From Scenedesmus sp. PABB004 (Eukaryota): DNA of 64,000 nucleotides. The stretch covers positions 620,001-684,000 of the forward strand of contig JABVCE010000020.1 of the NCBI GenBank assembly GCA_014905635.1, in the 5' to 3' direction. This document shows, one piece after another, positions 36,982-46,555 of this stretch (the stretch's first letter is position 1; each line of letters begins with the position of its first letter). The notes beneath the pieces are model-generated. The model was not told the origin of the DNA. It ran no database searches and worked only from the letters and a program-made list of their open reading frames with translations. The position numbers were made by a program, and so were the translations under genes.

Positions 36982-37560
36982 GCCGCGCGGCGGCGCGCTC
37001 GAACGATGCCCGAGCTGTCGCGCCCGGCGCCAGGCGGCTCCTCGCCCGCAGCGAGCGCGTCAGGCGCGCATGAAGCGCTGCAGTGATCGTCAAGGCGCCG
37101 CCAAGGCGGCCTCACGGCGACGGGCGGCGCGAGTGCGCGTTGTTGCCGCCGCTGCGGGCAGCGGCCGGCGGATGCTGAAGTTGCTGCTGGCGCTGCTGCC
37201 GCGAAGGCAGCCTCGGCCGCGCGTCACACCAGCTGGGTTGCGGGCGCCGCGCCGCAAAGCCGTGACGGCGCCGTCGCCGCCGCGGCGCGCGCCTGCCCGC
37301 CCGCCCGCCGCCCGGCAGTGCGTCAGGCTGGACTGGCCCAGCAACCAGTGCGGCAGCGGGGGCGGCCCGACACCGCGAGAGCATCAGCTGCTCCCGGGGG
37401 GGCTCCAGGCCCGCGCCCGCAAGGCGAGGCGCGGCAACGGCAGCGGCACATCCACGGACGCGGCGCACGGCGATCAGCGAGCACGGCCAGCGCGCGGAGC
37501 TGTGAGAGGCACCAGCGAGGCCGAGAGAGCTCTCGCGAGGCGCCCCGCTTGCAGGGCGCC

Positions 37561-39846
37561 ATGGGGTGCGGCTGGTCGGCAGCGGACGACGCCCCCGGCG
37601 TCGACGAAGGCCCCGACATAGCCCGCGGCGCAGCCGGTGCGGCGCGGGCGGCGGCGGAGCGCCAGCAGCGGCGCCGCTGCCGGCGCCGCGACCGCCGCGC
37701 TCACGCGCCTGCCGCCGCGCCCGCAGGCCGCTCCCTGCTCGCCCCGGGGCTGACGGCGGCCGCCGCGGCGCCCTGCGCGCCGGCGGCGGCGCCGTGCTGC
37801 GCGCACCCGGGCGGCGACGCGCCGCTCACGCCGCAGGCGCTGCTCGCGCTGTCCGCCGCGCTGCTCGACCAGGAGCCAGACCTCGCGGCGGCGCCGGGGC
37901 TGTCGCCGCTGCTGCTCGCGTCGCTGGCGCTGATCGAGAGCGGCGGCCGCCCGGGCGCGCGGCGGCAGTGCGAGCCCGGCGGCGAGGCGGCGGCCGGGCT
38001 GTGGCAGGTGCTGCCGTCGACCGCGGCGTGGCTCGCCGCCGCGCGCGGCTACGACCGCTACGGGACGCGCCCGAGCGCGGCGCTGCTGGCGGGCTCGCCG
38101 CGCGCTTGCGCGTACTTTGCGGCGGCGGCGCTCACGGTGCTCGCGCGGCGCGCCGAGCCGGGCGGCGCCGAGCCGGGCGGCGGCGCGCCGGCCGGCGTGC
38201 GCAGCGAGGCGTTCCTGGTCAAGGCGTCCCACGTCGGCCCCGACCCCGACCGCGTGGCCGGCGCGGCCGCGGCGCGGCACTGGGCCCGCTACGTCAAGGC
38301 GCGGCACTGCCTCGCCGCCGTCGCGCGCGCCGCGGCGGCGACGCTCGCGGCCGCGGCCGTCGCGGCCGCGACAGCGCGCGACGGCGGCGGCGGCGGCGGC
38401 GGCGACGACGGCGACGGCGACGAGGAGGAGCTGCTGGTGTGGCACGGCGCTGTGCCGCTGGTGCAGCTGCTGGCGGACGGCTGGGGCGAGGGCCCGGGCG
38501 CCGCGCCGCCGCGCGGGGGCGGCGACGGCAGCCTGCTGGCGCAGCTCTGGCGGCCCGCGGAGCCCGCCGCCGCACACGGCGGCCCAAAGAAGCAGCAGCA
38601 ACAGCAGCACCAGCAGGTGGGCCCGGGCAGCGCCGCCCCGGGCGGCCGGCGGCGGCCGGCCAGCGGCGGCGCGCCGGCCGGCGGCGAGGGGGCCGGGCCG
38701 TTCCGGCTGGCGCCCGTGAGCCGCGGCGCCTTTGCGTGCGCGCTGCGGCGCCTCGTGCGCATCGACGCCGCCGCCGTGCGCACGGCGATGGCGAACGCCG
38801 CGGTCGCAGCCGCCACGGCCGCCGCCGCCGCGCGCGCCGGCGGCTGCGCCGACGACGGCGGCGCCGACACGGCGGGCCCGGGCCCGCCGCCGCTGCCGTG
38901 CCTGATGCACGTGGTGGGGCACAGCGAGACGCTCGCCGACATTGCCGCCGCGTGCGGCGTGGCGCCGGACGACCTGCTGCTGGCCAACCCGGAGCTCCGC
39001 GCCGCGGGCGGCGCCGTGCAGGCAAACGACGTCATCGCGCTGCCCGTGCCGGCGCTGCCGCCGCGGCTGTACGTGCTCCAGCCGGGCGACACGCTGCCGG
39101 GCGTCGCACGCGCGCACCGCGTGTCGCTGGGGCGCCTGCTCGCCGCCAATCCGGAGCTCGCCGCGCCGAGCGCGGTCGAGCCGGGGTGGGTTGTCGTGCT
39201 GCCCGCGCTCCGCGGCGCGGGCGGCAAGGGCGGGCCGCTCGCGCTCGACTGGGCGGCGGCGGCCGCCGCGGCAGAGGCAGAGGCAGAGGCCGCGGCGGCC
39301 GCCGCGGCCGCCGCGGCGGCGCTGCAGGCCGAGGAGAGCTGGGGCCGCGACGCAAAGCGCTCGGCGGGTGGTCGCCCCGACCAGGCGCCGGCCACGCCGG
39401 CCGCCTCCCGGGGCGACGACGACGTGCCCGCCGGCGCCGCAGGCAGCAGCGCCGGCGGCTGCGACGCGGCCTCGCCCAGCGCCAGCCCCGGCCGCGCCGG
39501 CGCCAGCCCCGGCAGCGATCTCCCCAGCCTCGCGTGGCTGCGGGCGCGAGGCATGGACGCCTCGGCAGCCGTCACTGCCAGCGTGCGCGCCTCGGCGCCG
39601 CCGCGCGCGGCAGCTCCGCAGCCGGCCTGGCCGGCCCTCGGCAGCGGCGCGTTCCTGTTCTCCGTTGGGCAGTCGCCCCCGGCGTTTGCGCCCGTCCCGC
39701 AGCAGCAGCACGGTGGCCGGCGCCGGCCGCACGCCGGCGGTGGCGGCGCGGCCAAGGCCGCCAAGGGCGCTGCCCCGCGCGCGCCGCGGCGGCACGCCGA
39801 CGCCGCCGGCAGCGCCGTGCCACGGGCGCCGCCGCTGGCCGGCTAG
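37561..39846 (+). CDS. SLT-family lytic transglycosylase-like domain + two LysM domains, MGC N-terminus, apparently single exon
   Basis: SLT motifs: LALIES (Glu codon 37936), GLWQVLPSTA and KASHVGP. LysM1 is HVVGHSETLADIAAACGV...LLLANPEL (~38905-39045). LysM2 is YVLQPGDTLPGVARAHRVSLGRLLAANPEL...PGWVVVLP (~39069-39204). Confidence 0.85.
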   Translation: MGCGWSAADDAPGVDEGPDIARGAAGAARAAAERQQRRRCRRRDRRAHAPAAAPAGRSLLAPGLTAAAAAPCAPAAAPCCAHPGGDAPLTPQALLALSAALLDQEPDLAAAPGLSPLLLASLALIESGGRPGARRQCEPGGEAAAGLWQVLPSTAAWLAAARGYDRYGTRPSAALLAGSPRACAYFAAAALTVLARRAEPGGAEPGGGAPAGVRSEAFLVKASHVGPDPDRVAGAAAARHWARYVKARHCLAAVARAAAATLAAAAVAAATARDGGGGGGGDDGDGDEEELLVWHGAVPLVQLLADGWGEGPGAAPPRGGGDGSLLAQLWRPAEPAAAHGGPKKQQQQQHQQVGPGSAAPGGRRRPASGGAPAGGEGAGPFRLAPVSRGAFACALRRLVRIDAAAVRTAMANAAVAAATAAAAARAGGCADDGGADTAGPGPPPLPCLMHVVGHSETLADIAAACGVAPDDLLLANPELRAAGGAVQANDVIALPVPALPPRLYVLQPGDTLPGVARAHRVSLGRLLAANPELAAPSAVEPGWVVVLPALRGAGGKGGPLALDWAAAAAAAEAEAEAAAAAAAAAAALQAEESWGRDAKRSAGGRPDQAPATPAASRGDDDVPAGAAGSSAGGCDAASPSASPGRAGASPGSDLPSLAWLRARGMDASAAVTASVRASAPPRAAAPQPAWPALGSGAFLFSVGQSPPAFAPVPQQQHGGRRRPHAGGGGAAKAAKGAAPRAPRRHADAAGSAVPRAPPLAG

Positions 39847-40454
39847 GCTGGGGCGCTGCCGGCCGCGGGGCCGGCCTTCCCCCCGTCCCTGCACCGTCCG
39901 GTCCGCTGCGCCGGCGGCCGGGTCAGGAGCGAACAGGGGCCATAGCAGCAGGAGCAGCAGCAGGAGTAGCAGGGGTTGGTTGTTGTCGCCGCCGAGCGGG
40001 GGCGGCCCTAGTCTCTAGCTCGGGCCCTGGGCAGGGCCCGCATGTACGACCAATCGTTGCGCGCGTGTATATACCGTGTTCTGTGTTGCCCTGCGTGCGT
40101 CTTGCGCCGCTCCACCGCCTCCCCTCGTCAACGCAGCCTGCCGCGTCGCCTCCTGGCTGACCGGCGGGGCACCGACCGCCCCCTGCCGTTGGCGCCGGCG
40201 GCGCCGCATCACCGGCTTGCCGCGCGGCTGCTGAGCGCCGCGCGCGATCGCATTTGATGATTAACCTGGAGGGGGAGGGGCTTGCTGTGGTTTACCGCCA
40301 CGGCGCAGCGTGAGGACCCTTGCTCGTGTTACTCAGCGTCGTCGTCGCAGCCCCCGCGCACGCCTGCGTGCCCCGCCCCCGTCCCCGGCCCCGGCGCGGG
40401 GCATCAACAGCCGAGCCAGCCGGCGCGTCAACACAACAGAGGTGCGGGGGCCGC

Positions 40455-41540
40455 TCAGCGCGCCGCGCCGCCGCCGTCGCCGCCGCCCGCGAGCAGCGCC
40501 TCTGACAGCAGGCTGCCCGGCGGCGCCGCCGCGGCGGCGGCGGCGCGGCCGCGCCCGCGGCGCACGTGTCGCACCGTCACCGCCGCGCAGCAGGCGGCGA
40601 GGGACAGGCCGGCGACCGCGGCGAGGGCCGCGACCGCGGCGTCGCCGCCGCCGTGCTGGCCGCGCGCGATGGCGGCGAGCACGCCGCCAAAGGCCCAGAC
40701 GAGCGTGAGCCCGTACGGCACGTCACGGCGCGCGAGGACGACCCACGCGCCGGCCGCCGCGACAGCGGCGGCGAGCGCGGCGCCGAGCGCGCCCTGCGCG
40801 CCGGCGGGCGCGCCCTCGCTCGCGGCGACGAGGGCGAGCCCGAGCGCCGACGCCACCGACATCCACGCCGCGTTGAGGCTCGTGGGCAGCACGAACAGCA
40901 CAAAGCACAGCAGCGGCACGTGGGTCGTCGAGCCCGCGCCGGCACCGCCCGCCGGCGGCGCCTCGCCGGGCGGCAGCGCGCCCGGCGGCAGCGCGTGCAG
41001 GCGCGCAAGCGTCACGCCGATCGCCGCCAGCCCGCCGAGCAGCAGCGCCGCGCAGCCGAGGAACGAGGCGCGCGTCTGCGTCGGGAAGAGCAGCTGCCAG
41101 GCCGCCTCGCAGAGCCACGTCGCCTGCCAGCCGTAGCCGACCGTGTTGACGACGAGCCGCTTCGCCGGCGCGCCGTCGCCCGCCGGCAGCGCCGCCCACA
41201 CCACGCCGGCGCCCTGGAGCAGAAATATGGCGCCCCATATGGCAAACGCCCACGGCGCGGGCGTGATCGGCGTCTCGTATTTGCGTGAGATCTGGAGGGC
41301 GGGCGGCGCCGGCGGTCGCAGAAGTCGGTCGCAGCTGACGCAGCGGCAGCAGCAGCGGCGGCAGCGGCTGCGGCAGCGGCAGCGGTCGCGCCGCGCGCCG
41401 CGCGAGCCCCAGCGCGTCCCCTCGCGTCTCCTGGCGCGTACGTCTGCGTTGCTGGGAGCCAGAGCGTTTACGGCGACAAAAGCAGCGAACGCCACGACGT
41501 TGCTCGCGCGCAGCAGTCGCGAGGGCAGCGGCGGGTCCAT
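40455..41540 (-). CDS. TspO/MBR-like (tryptophan-rich sensory) multi-pass membrane protein (2 exons)
   Basis: ISRKYETPITPAPWAFAIWGAIFLLQ, AWQLLF, SLNAAWMSVA, RRDVPYGLTLVWA, plus several hydrophobic helices. Confidence 0.75.
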   Translation of the reverse strand: MDPPLPSRLLRASNVVAFAAFVAVNALAPSNADVRARRREGTRWGSRGARRDRCRCRSRCRRCCCRCVSCDRLLRPPAPPALQISRKYETPITPAPWAFAIWGAIFLLQGAGVVWAALPAGDGAPAKRLVVNTVGYGWQATWLCEAAWQLLFPTQTRASFLGCAALLLGGLAAIGVTLARLHALPPGALPPGEAPPAGGAGAGSTTHVPLLCFVLFVLPTSLNAAWMSVASALGLALVAASEGAPAGAQGALGAALAAAVAAAGAWVVLARRDVPYGLTLVWAFGGVLAAIARGQHGGGDAAVAALAAVAGLSLAACCAAVTVRHVRRGRGRAAAAAAAPPGSLLSEALLAGGGDGGGAAR

Positions 41541-44779: not shown

Positions 44780-45931
44780 TCACGACGGCGGCCTATGAAG
44801 CTCGCCGAGGCCCATCGCCCGAAACGCGAGCCGGTCCTGCAGCCACAGCGGCAGCCAGCGCAGCAGCCACTCGACGCCGGCGCACGGCCCCACCCAGTAC
44901 CGCGGCACGCGCGGCGCGAGCACCACGTCGGCCAGCGCGTCGGCGTATCGCTCCGCTGGCACCGCGCCGACGAGGAGGCGCGCCATCGCGCGCTCGAGCG
45001 CGCCGAGCCAGCCGGGCCAGAGCGACGACGGCGCGTCCGCGTAGCCCGCCGCCACCGCCGCCGCGGTGTCGCGCGCGTGGCTACGGATGAACCCCGGGGC
45101 GATGAGCAGCACCTGGCGCCGGCGCCGGCGGCGCCGGCGGCGGCAGCGGTCGGCCCGCGGCGCGCGGGGTCCTAGGCGGCCGGCGCCGCGCGCGCGGGGC
45201 TCGCGGGGCTCGCGCGCACGCGCGTGCCTGCACGCCGTGCATGCTGAGCTCCACGCGCAGCGCGTCGGTCAGCCGCATCACCGCGGCCTTGGTCGCGCTG
45301 TAGATGCCGCGCAGCGGCACGGGCGTGAACCCCGTGAGCGAGCCGATGTTTACGATCCGCCCGGCGCGCTGCGCGACCATCGCCGGCGCGACGGCCTGGC
45401 CGCGGCGGCCGCGGGGCACGCGTGAGGCAGGGGCGCGCGGGGCGGGCGACGGCGCCGGCGGCGGCGGCGCCTCCGCGCGCCGCTGTGCGCCGACCTGGCA
45501 CATCGCGAGCAGGCCGAAGACGTTGGCGTCGAACCCGGCCTTGACCAGCGACAGTGGCACCTCCGCGGTGGGGCCCAGCAGCACGACGCCTGCGCCCGGC
45601 GCGGCGCACGCAGCCCGTGCATCGGCCGCCGCCAGCGGGCGCGAGCGCCGCAGACCGAGTGCCGCCGCCGGCGCAGCGCGCCTGCGTTGTTTATCAGCAC
45701 GTCGATGCGCCCCGCCTCTGCGAGCACGCGCGCCACGCAGTCCCGCACGCTGCCGGCGTCGGTGACGTCCAGGCGCAGCACGCGGCAGCCGCGCTCCTGC
45801 AGGCCCGCCATCGCCTCCACGCGCCGCGCAGTCGCGAACACGACGCACCCTCGCGCCGCGAACGCTCCCGCCAGCGCGTGGCCGATCCCACCGGACGTAC
45901 AGCCCGTGACGAGCACGACGCGGGGGCGCAT
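44780..45931 (-). CDS. Classical short-chain dehydrogenase/reductase (AYR1/17-beta-HSD-like), 4 exons
   Basis: TGCTSGGIG, LDVTD, LINNAG, VNIGS, catalytic YSATK, and LIAPGFI. Confidence 0.93.
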
Positions 45932-46555
45932 CGCGGCCGCAGCAGCAGCAGCAGCGGCGGCATGCGCGGCGGGTGGCAGCGGCGGCGTGCGGCCCGTGCG
46001 CCCGGGCGGACGTGATGGGGGTGACGCCCTGGTCACGAATAGACGCCCCGGGCGCCGGCTGTCGGCGCGCTCGAACGCAGTGGTGTTAGTGGCACTCCCG
46101 CCCCGCCCGCCCGCCTGCGTGCCCCGCTGGCCGCGTCGGGTCGCGAGCGCGGCGCTCTCGTCCGTGCCGGCATCACCCGCCCGATCACGCCCCGCCTTGG
46201 CCCCCGCTGGCGACCGCGGCTCGCCCAGCCGGCCACGCCCCCGCTCCTCAGGTGCGCCGCCTCGCGCCTCGCTGCGCCGTCACGTCGGCTGATCGCCGGG
46301 CGCTGGCGCATCCGCGCGCGCGCACGGCGCCTGCGGGCCGCGCGGGGCGGTGGTTTGCCGCGCGCGATGTCGGGCAGCTCCACGGCGCGGTGACGACGCG
46401 GCGCGGCGGGCCCCGATCGCGGCAGAGGCGTGAGCGTGAGCTCCTCGTAGCATGGGAGCGGCGCCCGGCCCGCGCGCGCTCACGCCGGCCGCTGGCCCGG
46501 CTGCTGCCGCCCCACCTCGCCTCGCCCGCAGGCGCCCGCCCCCCCGCAGCGCGCC

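Follow-up and report, generated by a model that had tools for sequence, protein, structure and literature searches.

How does a protein with the domain architecture of a bacterial autolysin come to be encoded in the nuclear DNA of a green alga, and what would it do there? This question is raised by an open reading frame (ORF) in a 64,000-nucleotide stretch of DNA from Scenedesmus sp. PABB004 (GenBank assembly GCA_014905635.1, contig JABVCE010000020.1, positions 620,001 to 684,000 of the forward strand; hereafter, the window). At positions 37561-39846 on the forward strand of the window, a single frame runs from ATG to stop and encodes 761 amino acids (aa) starting with MGCGWS. A sequence-only reading had interpreted it as a lytic transglycosylase (SLT)-LysM-LysM protein with an acylation-type N-terminus. 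The gene lies in the nuclear DNA, of extreme GC content, of a chlorophycean green alga, and its product already has an entry in public databases, where it is unnamed and listed as ‘hypothetical protein HT031_005253 [Scenedesmus sp. PABB004]’ (P0001). The combination of SLT and LysM is the textbook architecture of bacterial autolysins; here we describe it as a family of glycoside hydrolase family 23 (GH23) SLT-LysM-LysM proteins that occurs in several green algae and is without a secretion signal. What is new is this bacterial-type architecture as a conserved algal family with a predicted anchor of eukaryotic type, which is present in databases and uncharacterised.

The SLT and LysM domains

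Both domain types were matched in this frame by Pfam. The SLT match (PF01464) was above the gathering threshold (25.0 bits against a cutoff of 21.3, E = 1.5e-5) and was partial, with aa 110-166 corresponding to profile positions 8-59 of 117, and LysM (PF01476) was found in two stretches (46.7 bits against a cutoff of 20.9, E = 3.1e-12). For LysM, profile searches of the PDB returned Ecp6 (1.2e-5), SafA (3.7e-4) and also the LysM pair of the T. thermophilus NlpC/P60 protein. In an AlphaFold2 (AF2) model of the full-length protein, the LysM domains were predicted to have the order strand-helix-helix-strand, with a predicted local distance difference test (pLDDT) score of approximately 92.

We also modelled aa 85-270 by AF2 with 15 relatives, which gave a mean pLDDT of 92.7. 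When this model was compared with the PDB by Foldseek, Escherichia coli MltE was ranked first (E = 4.5e-4, probability 1.00), followed by Slt, phiKZ gp144, MltC and Slt70, and the probability was likewise 1.00 for Slt and MltC. Superposition on MltE by VIA-align gave a Z-score of 14.8 and a root-mean-square deviation of 2.6 Å over 142 aligned residues (model range 5-173), with MltC, MltF and Slt70 all within one Z unit of MltE. The profile of the family SLT region also matched MltE in the PDB (E = 7.9e-8, or 3.6e-9 with another family profile). As judged from the model, the SLT region has the lysozyme-like (goose-type/SLT) fold of the family-1 lytic transglycosylases, and the lysozyme-type match on which the sequence-only reading had depended was thus obtained.

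The segment SLALIESGG occupies aa 121-129 of the ORF. In the profile alignment, the LIESGG of the family falls on the IESGG of MltE, whose inactive mutant is given in PDB entry titles as E64Q; by counting along the alignment, the Glu aligned to Glu126 would be E64 of MltE. The Glu-Ser-x-Gly columns were at least 90% conserved in an 11-sequence alignment and were invariant in all seven compact members. The earlier claim of an SLT domain with an intact catalytic Glu, followed by two LysM domains, is therefore borne out by Pfam, by the predicted fold (AF2, Foldseek and VIA-align) and by the alignment of Glu126 with the Glu of MltE, and the ORF check and Pfam located every sequence feature that had been named. 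In Slt70-type enzymes, motif II is defined as GLMQ and motif III as AYNAGP. Here, motif II is GLWQ at aa 146 (GLCQ in the family), and motif III is degenerate, reading ASHVGP at aa 222 (AYHAGP in the family); the family-conserved Tyr of AAYL is Ala.

These replacements bear on the main rival explanation, namely that the protein is a non-catalytic membrane tether or a glycan- or protein-binding scaffold, with the SLT domain being a pseudo-enzyme or a binding module. In its favour, conserved SLT positions are replaced in both the Scenedesmus and the Raphidocelis proteins (AAYL to AAAL/AALL and AYHAGP to ASHVGP/AFRAGA), and Pfam matches the SLT domain weakly and over part of the profile only. However, the catalytic Glu-Ser is kept in nearly all relatives (at least 90% of 11, and 7/7), and the whole fold of the catalytic domain is predicted at a pLDDT above 90. 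The retention of Glu-Ser together with an intact predicted fold is the pattern expected under selection for catalysis. We consider a tether or scaffold unlikely on balance, while it deserves serious weight.

Among enzymes of known structure, MltE (EmtA), a GH23 family-1 outer-membrane lipoprotein of E. coli, is the closest by both profile and fold, with its catalytic Glu-Ser motif aligned. Both proteins have a compact, single-domain catalytic module and an N-terminal lipid directed to a membrane, although the lipid of the algal protein is a prediction. However, MltE is periplasmic and anchored in the outer membrane according to the PDB titles, whereas the start of the algal protein, Met-Gly-Cys, is of a eukaryotic type and no signal peptide is present; MltE has a bacterial lipoprotein signal and lipobox. 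Furthermore, MltE is without LysM, and its identity to the algal SLT domain is only approximately 20%. By analogy, the algal family may be a re-anchored version of an MltE-like enzyme.

The same order, SLT and then two LysM domains, is found in MltD-type bacterial enzymes such as P. aeruginosa MltD (PDB 8rhe/8rhf). However, the NCBIfam equivalog for MltD, PRK10783, gives the algal protein 11.2 bits against a cutoff of 508, and therefore the protein is not an MltD ortholog. The algal family profile matched 8rhe in LysM only (profile positions 269-319, E = 1.4e-4), and the full-length algal model matched 8rhf weakly (E = 0.012). Compared with MltD, the algal family has a different anchor, and the subfamily to which the Scenedesmus protein belongs also has a 180-residue insert between SLT and LysM.

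A 12-residue insertion rich in Gly, Ala and Pro (38152-38187 on the forward strand; ORF aa 198-209) was observed in a surface loop of the SLT domain, with a pLDDT of 64-69. Its length of approximately 36 nt is too small for an intron. The relative P0012 has an unrelated insertion in that same loop.

A green-algal family and its origin

A HMMER scan covering 1.84 billion representative proteins returned 1162 matches at E ≤ 1e-3, most of them through LysM, and 23 at E ≤ 1e-30, the best having an E-value of 1e-59. Pfam analysis of 32 relatives that were top-ranked or matched SLT found SLT (E ≤ 0.01) in 14 and both SLT and LysM in 11, with SLT scores of up to 56 bits across profile positions 7-114. 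A family SLT hidden Markov model (HMM) matched 27 of 157 collected proteins and was built from 16 of these 27, most of which carry two LysM domains as well; the same holds for most of the 27. The named members come from Raphidocelis subcapitata (Sphaeropleales) and Ostreobium quekettii (Ulvophyceae), and it is near certain that the Scenedesmus protein belongs to a family of eukaryotic SLT-LysM-LysM proteins in green algae. For the sequence-only reading, it mattered whether the architecture is already common and characterised across green algae. It recurs in several of these algae, but no characterisation was found, and literature searches that did not extend to supplementary tables returned no paper on the function of an SLT protein from algae or plants.

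In a tree of 17 rows, the 14 full-domain members formed a clade (100/99 support) apart from three environmental SLTs used as outgroups, and the Scenedesmus protein grouped weakly (83/76) with two other long members. L094 (identical to L093), L095 and partial members (short coverage) were left out. Six of the 14 inner branches were open, and three rows were compositionally deviant, the Scenedesmus protein being among those flagged. Because of the few outgroups and the compositional deviation, the tree shows monophyly against three outgroups only and says nothing about origin. In the relative P0002, residues 644-681 gave weak, sub-threshold Pfam matches to Rad51/RecA and the second LysM domain is cut short; this gene model probably runs into a neighbouring gene.

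The long (chlorophycean-type) members, including the Scenedesmus protein, have two additional conserved blocks in the stretch that separates SLT from LysM. According to the full-length AF2 model, block A was predicted as a strand and a helix (E260-264 and H265-275, pLDDT 72-91), and block C as a strand and two helices (E353-357, H358-371 and H373-399, pLDDT 86-94). In addition, 21 family proteins were inspected, and 15 of them have a motif of the form [VIL]G[ST]G[AML][FY][LM]F in the C-terminal tail. This hydrophobic motif of the long subfamily may be a linear binding motif. VGSGAFLF[ST]VG or a close variant was observed in the relatives P0003, P0004, P0007, P0008, P0009, P0011 and P0014, and also in P0021, P0022, P0024, P0031, P0032 and P0061.

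If the family is algal, then where did its genes come from? The SLT-LysM architecture is typical of bacteria, and in the passages of Zhang et al. (2009, PMC2728734) considered here the combination SLT+xLysM is listed as exclusive to bacteria and is not listed for Chlamydomonas. This and the essentially intronless state of the gene would favour either a recent arrival of the gene by horizontal transfer, with a bacterial or viral donor, or contamination of the assembly with bacterial DNA. Bacterial and viral loci were collected through the conserved LysM patterns of the family: the bacterial loci were the best 80 of 296 relatives among 585 stretches, from genomes representing one per species of the Genome Taxonomy Database (GTDB), and 10 viral loci came from IMG/VR contigs. 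In these 90 loci, the matches covered only query residues 180-384, corresponding to LysM and the tail, with at most 44% identity, and no ORF of at least 80 aa matched the family SLT HMM (E ≤ 0.01). A tblastn search with the SLT region against 50,697 phage records returned no match. JGI metagenomes gave five weak SLT matches among 13 stretches, whose ORFs scored 16-34 bits against the family HMM.

The confinement of the bacterial and viral matches to LysM and the tail, and the absence of a phage match, argue against a transfer, as do the GC content and codon periodicity of the gene, which match those of the host, the presence of eukaryote-type MGC relatives in other green algae, and the separation of the 14-member clade from the environmental SLTs, albeit in a small tree. 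Contamination is opposed by the length of the source contig (737,270 bases). Thus, we regard recent transfer or contamination as highly improbable. The sequence-only reading had also suggested a lineage-specific fusion or a retrocopy besides transfer. These suggestions are not supported, as the same architecture, N-terminus and extra blocks are present in further green algae, Raphidocelis and Ostreobium among them, and the composition is host-like; import from bacteria or viruses finds no close full-length bacterial, phage or viral relative in the loci and phage records searched. Given the host-like composition, the algal relatives and the lack of a close bacterial or viral relative, a recent event restricted to Scenedesmus, be it a transfer, a retrocopy or a fusion, is unlikely, and the gene is most economically read as an old one of the green lineage.

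We also compared aa 55-240 of P0001 with the large clusters of the ESM Atlas. The nearest was a streptophyte ‘Transglycosylase SLT domain-containing protein’, with a template modelling (TM) score of 0.77 over 167 residues, and bacterial clusters scored 0.64-0.67 for the same region. The same streptophyte clusters lead for the Ostreobium member (TM 0.43-0.48). A streptophyte SLT family (approximately 406-416 aa), which the sequence-only reading had mentioned for land plants, does exist and is thus the nearest structural cluster for both algal proteins among the large clusters. SLT is the sole common Pfam family listed for the streptophyte clusters, whereas the algal family adds LysM. This structural neighbourhood suggests a green-lineage SLT family shared with streptophytes, and the SLT-LysM-LysM family itself may extend to the wider green lineage. 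No plant protein was present among the nine proteins found by the family alignment or the three found by the SLT region of P0020, and no function of streptophyte SLT proteins was found in the literature. In section 2.3.6 of their lectin catalogue, the part considered here, Van Holle et al. (2017, PMC5485960) list two ‘rice-specific’ SLT/LysM proteins.

N-terminus, predicted topology and possible function

Of the 16 family members in which the N-terminal SLT region is complete, 11 start with MGC. Among the remaining five, one starts with MGQCC, one starts with MGN, one has an internal MGCFHS and two start otherwise. Position 6 of the 11 MGC members is Ser in nine, Ala in one and Gly in one. Gly2-Cys3 together with Ser6 constitutes a classical signal for cotranslational N-myristoylation followed by S-palmitoylation, in which position 6 is a small or hydroxyl residue. 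To the extent that sequence can indicate it, the conservation of MGC across distant algae is the strongest new point for a membrane tether, and the protein is probably lipidated. The acylation-type N-terminus and tether proposed in the sequence-only reading are thus backed by the family, with lipidation itself as a prediction. In the relative P0016, MGCFHS starts 47 residues inside the annotated N-terminus, and the region of the catalytic motif is missing from P0007; in both cases, the 5' end appears to have been mis-called, and neither looks like a real variant.

No signal-peptide-like or hydrophobic N-terminal segment was found in the 11 MGC members (maximum Kyte-Doolittle (KD) 19-residue score at most 0.96 over the first 25 start positions), and no transmembrane-like segment was found by KD analysis anywhere in the compact members. 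Likewise, a bacterial lipoprotein signal peptide with a lipobox was not found in a protein that starts with MGCGWS and has a maximum KD 19-residue score of 0.96. The Ala-rich segment after SLT (KD 1.84) was considered as a candidate transmembrane helix and rejected, as it is part of a long model helix and is absent from the short members. The first 54 residues of the deposited protein were predicted to be disordered in the full-length AF2 model.

N-myristoylation is a cytosolic modification, and dually acylated proteins sit on the cytosolic face of membranes. Therefore, there are simpler readings than an antibacterial role after secretion, and the extracellular antibacterial defence considered in the sequence-only reading fits poorly with the lack of a visible signal peptide or transmembrane segment. 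A secreted or surface enzyme for antibacterial action or wall remodelling would have to be exported by an unconventional, acylation-dependent route. Such dual-acylation-dependent export occurs for some protist proteins; in addition, SLT and LysM together are the architecture of bacterial murein enzymes, and the LysM pair is similar to those with which Ecp6 and the T. thermophilus NlpC/P60 protein bind chitin or peptidoglycan. However, neither an N-terminal hydrophobic segment nor a transmembrane helix was seen in the 11 MGC members, and the conserved Gly2-Cys3 start indicates a cytosolic modification. We consider export improbable.

We propose the following mechanism, in which the lipidation, topology, catalytic activity and nature of the substrate are what we infer. 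The Met-Gly-Cys-x-x-Ser start would be N-myristoylated on Gly2 and S-palmitoylated on Cys3, and a disordered linker of approximately 55-85 residues would hold the protein, in which neither a signal peptide nor a transmembrane helix was seen, at the cytosolic face of a membrane. The GH23-like domain would cut beta-1,4 bonds of a glycan of the N-acetylglucosamine/N-acetylmuramic acid (GlcNAc/MurNAc) type, with Glu126 as the single catalytic acid/base, and the two LysM domains would bind the same glycan and keep the enzyme on it. In the long subfamily, the two folded inserts and the C-terminal motif would probably mediate regulation or partner binding. Candidate substrates would be the peptidoglycan of intracellular bacteria, a residual peptidoglycan-like glycan of the plastid envelope or another GlcNAc polymer. 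Taken as a whole, this chain, that is, an N-myristoylated and palmitoylated, intracellular, membrane-tethered GH23 enzyme that cleaves a glycan under the guidance of two LysM domains, stands in our estimation at an even chance of being correct. Of the earlier interpretation, the enzyme type, the MGC tether and the streptophyte family are supported, the origin by lineage-specific fusion, retrocopy or recent horizontal transfer is not, and the extracellular defence fits poorly.

Several points weigh against this proposal. By Pfam, the SLT domain of the Scenedesmus protein is the weakest of the family (25 bits and partial, against 35-56 bits in several relatives). Conserved residues are replaced (AAYL by AAAL, AYHAGP by ASHVGP and GLCQ by GLWQ), and the protein is 27.7% Ala, a composition that deviates from that of the alignment; the high Ala content is consistent with GC-driven drift. 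Because of the replaced residues and the Ala-rich composition, activity may have been reduced or lost in this protein, and from its sequence we rate the chance that this particular protein is catalytically active as falling just short of even. Lipidation and localisation are predictions from the N-terminal sequence. Moreover, we know of no substrate on the cytosolic face of algal membranes. The taxonomic breadth of the family is partly known, with organism names for three members besides the Scenedesmus protein (two from Ostreobium and one from Raphidocelis), and the relation to streptophytes comes from a listing of structural neighbours and not from an alignment. Finally, van Baren et al. (2016, PMC4815162), in the part of their work considered here, report few peptidoglycan-pathway genes in chlorophyte algae, with MURE, DDL, MRAY and MURG found throughout Viridiplantae.

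Other reports, each considered in part, concern related enzymes. Burns et al. (2015, PMC5741210) describe GH103, as opposed to GH23, in green algae and plants, and GH23 in Cyanophora, and Suzuki et al. (2021, PMC8679911) describe lytic-transglycosylase transcripts of cyanobacterial origin in RNA-seq of a haptophyte with a cyanobacterial endosymbiont.

The predicted intracellular topology, for which no substrate is known, also counts in favour of a tether or scaffold. Intracellular chlorophycean LysM proteins are represented in Chlamydomonas by MIN1 (C2 and LysM) and EYE2 (LysM and thioredoxin). However, MIN1 and EYE2 are without SLT, they are attached to membranes by C2 or a transmembrane helix and not by acylation, and their homology to the algal protein is confined to LysM. 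In the sections of Boyd et al. (2011, PMC3084665) considered here, EYE2 of the eyespot is localised to the region of the chloroplast envelope, a part in attaching the envelope to the plasma membrane is postulated for MIN1, and protein-protein roles are suggested for LysM. By analogy with what has been proposed for MIN1/EYE2 at the Chlamydomonas chloroplast envelope, the Scenedesmus protein as a scaffold would connect the site of its lipid anchor with a ligand of LysM.

Core chlorophyte algae are usually regarded as being without plastid peptidoglycan. The statement that core chlorophytes keep a catalytically intact, lipid-anchored lytic transglycosylase with SLT and tandem LysM domains, related to the SLT proteins of land plants, appears doubtful to us.

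An active enzyme would require a glycan of the GlcNAc/MurNAc type on the cytosolic side of some membrane, where these algae have no known glycan of that type. An intact enzyme would imply one of two situations. A peptidoglycan-like or GlcNAc glycan would await discovery at an intracellular membrane, for instance at the plastid envelope; alternatively, the enzyme would be a cell-autonomous one, tethered on the cytosolic side, and would act against the walls of bacteria that get into the algal cell. Under either alternative, an autolysin of the bacterial lipoprotein type would have been given a new, eukaryotic myristoyl/palmitoyl anchor. These alternatives bear on the extent to which green-lineage plastids have retained peptidoglycan metabolism and on whether algae have intracellular antibacterial enzymes, and relatives in transformable algae offer a concrete, genetically tractable handle. 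If the protein is instead a pseudo-enzyme, it would still be a new type of intracellular LysM tether.

Gene model, feature coordinates and neighbouring genes

The ORF, whose start context is GCGCCATGG, is identical to P0001 except for one 30-residue gap, the deposited model being the ORF minus aa 27-56. The statement of the sequence-only reading that one open frame suffices and no intron is needed is literally true. However, it is weak evidence, and the deposited model removes a 90-nt in-frame GT..AG interval (Table 1). The GC content at third codon positions (GC3) was 0.83-0.90 in windows overlapping this predicted intron and 0.93-1.00 across the SLT domain. The domains and the start are the same in the spliced and unspliced versions.

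Table 1. Positions in the window of the SLT-LysM-LysM gene and its features
Feature	Positions	Strand	Remarks
SLT-LysM-LysM coding frame	37561..39846	+	761 aa unspliced; deposited model HT031_005253, 731 aa
N-terminal MGCGWS	37561..37578	+	Gly2, Cys3 and Ser6 form a motif of the N-myristoylation plus S-palmitoylation type; lipidation itself predicted
Predicted 90-nt in-frame GT..AG intron (GTGCGG...CCGCAG)	37637..37726	+	Deposited model; would remove aa 27-56, in the disordered N-terminal linker
SLT/GH23 family-1 lytic-transglycosylase-like domain	37816..38343	+	ORF aa 86-261; Pfam, family HMM (166.8 bits), AF2, Foldseek, VIA-align (Z 12-14.8 for MltE, MltC, MltF and Slt70)
Glu126 codon, putative catalytic acid/base in SLALIESGG	37936..37938	+	Aligned with the Glu of the E. 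coli MltE IESGG motif
Conserved block A, ELLVWHGAVPLVQLLA	38428..38475	+	Only in the long (chlorophycean-type) subfamily; alignment
Conserved block C, LAPVSRGAFACALRRLVRID...	38707..38847	+	Between SLT and LysM; alignment
LysM domain 1	38911..39045	+	Approximately aa 451-495; Pfam, PDB profile, pLDDT approximately 92
LysM domain 2	39070..39204	+	aa 504-548, best Pfam stretch; PDB profile, pLDDT approximately 92
Short conserved motif, ALGSGAFLFSVGQ	39634..39672	+	In the otherwise disordered C-terminal tail; model pLDDT below 50

The GC content ranges from 73 to 85% across the window and is approximately 80% overall; that of the gene is approximately 82%, equal to its flanks. At codon positions 1/2/3, the GC fractions were 0.86/0.69/0.94 in the ORF, 0.81/0.79/0.73 upstream and 0.72/0.66/0.80 downstream, and the strong codon periodicity extends along almost the whole ORF, unlike in the flanks. 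The same locus is also open in 37506-40160 on the forward strand (884 aa) and in 37474-40014 on the reverse strand (846 aa), neither of which has a Pfam match. Since stop codons are rare at approximately 80% GC and these two other frames are open across the locus, the openness of the ORF is weak evidence, and the real frame is recognised by its domain content, its codon periodicity and its colinear homologues, which align with it in the N-terminus, SLT, the two middle blocks, both LysM domains and the C-terminal motif. A chance open frame in GC-rich DNA, containing no gene, would account for the locus being open in several frames. However, domain matches occur in the SLT-LysM frame only, homologues reach an E-value of 1e-59, a confident fold is predicted and coding periodicity is present, so that we regard this possibility as negligible. 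We conclude that the gene is real and belongs to the nuclear genome of Scenedesmus sp. PABB004. The overlapping 884-aa and 846-aa frames are a by-product of the GC content of approximately 80% and serve as a warning for ORF-based readings of this genome.

We also analyzed the 50 other open frames of at least 250 aa in 27971-48693 with Pfam (E ≤ 1e-4). The five that overlap the SLT-LysM ORF had no match. Just downstream, a 361-aa ORF starting with ATG was observed at 40455-41540 on the reverse strand; it has several hydrophobic stretches resembling membrane spans, and its enclosing frame had no Pfam match at the same threshold. Matches were found in two of the 50 frames, and both are pieces of one short-chain dehydrogenase/reductase gene at 45084-46279 on the reverse strand. 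Its adh_short domain is divided between 45353-46279, which has the N-terminal part, and 45084-46085, which has the C-terminal part; since it is split across two frames, this gene is spliced or frameshifted.

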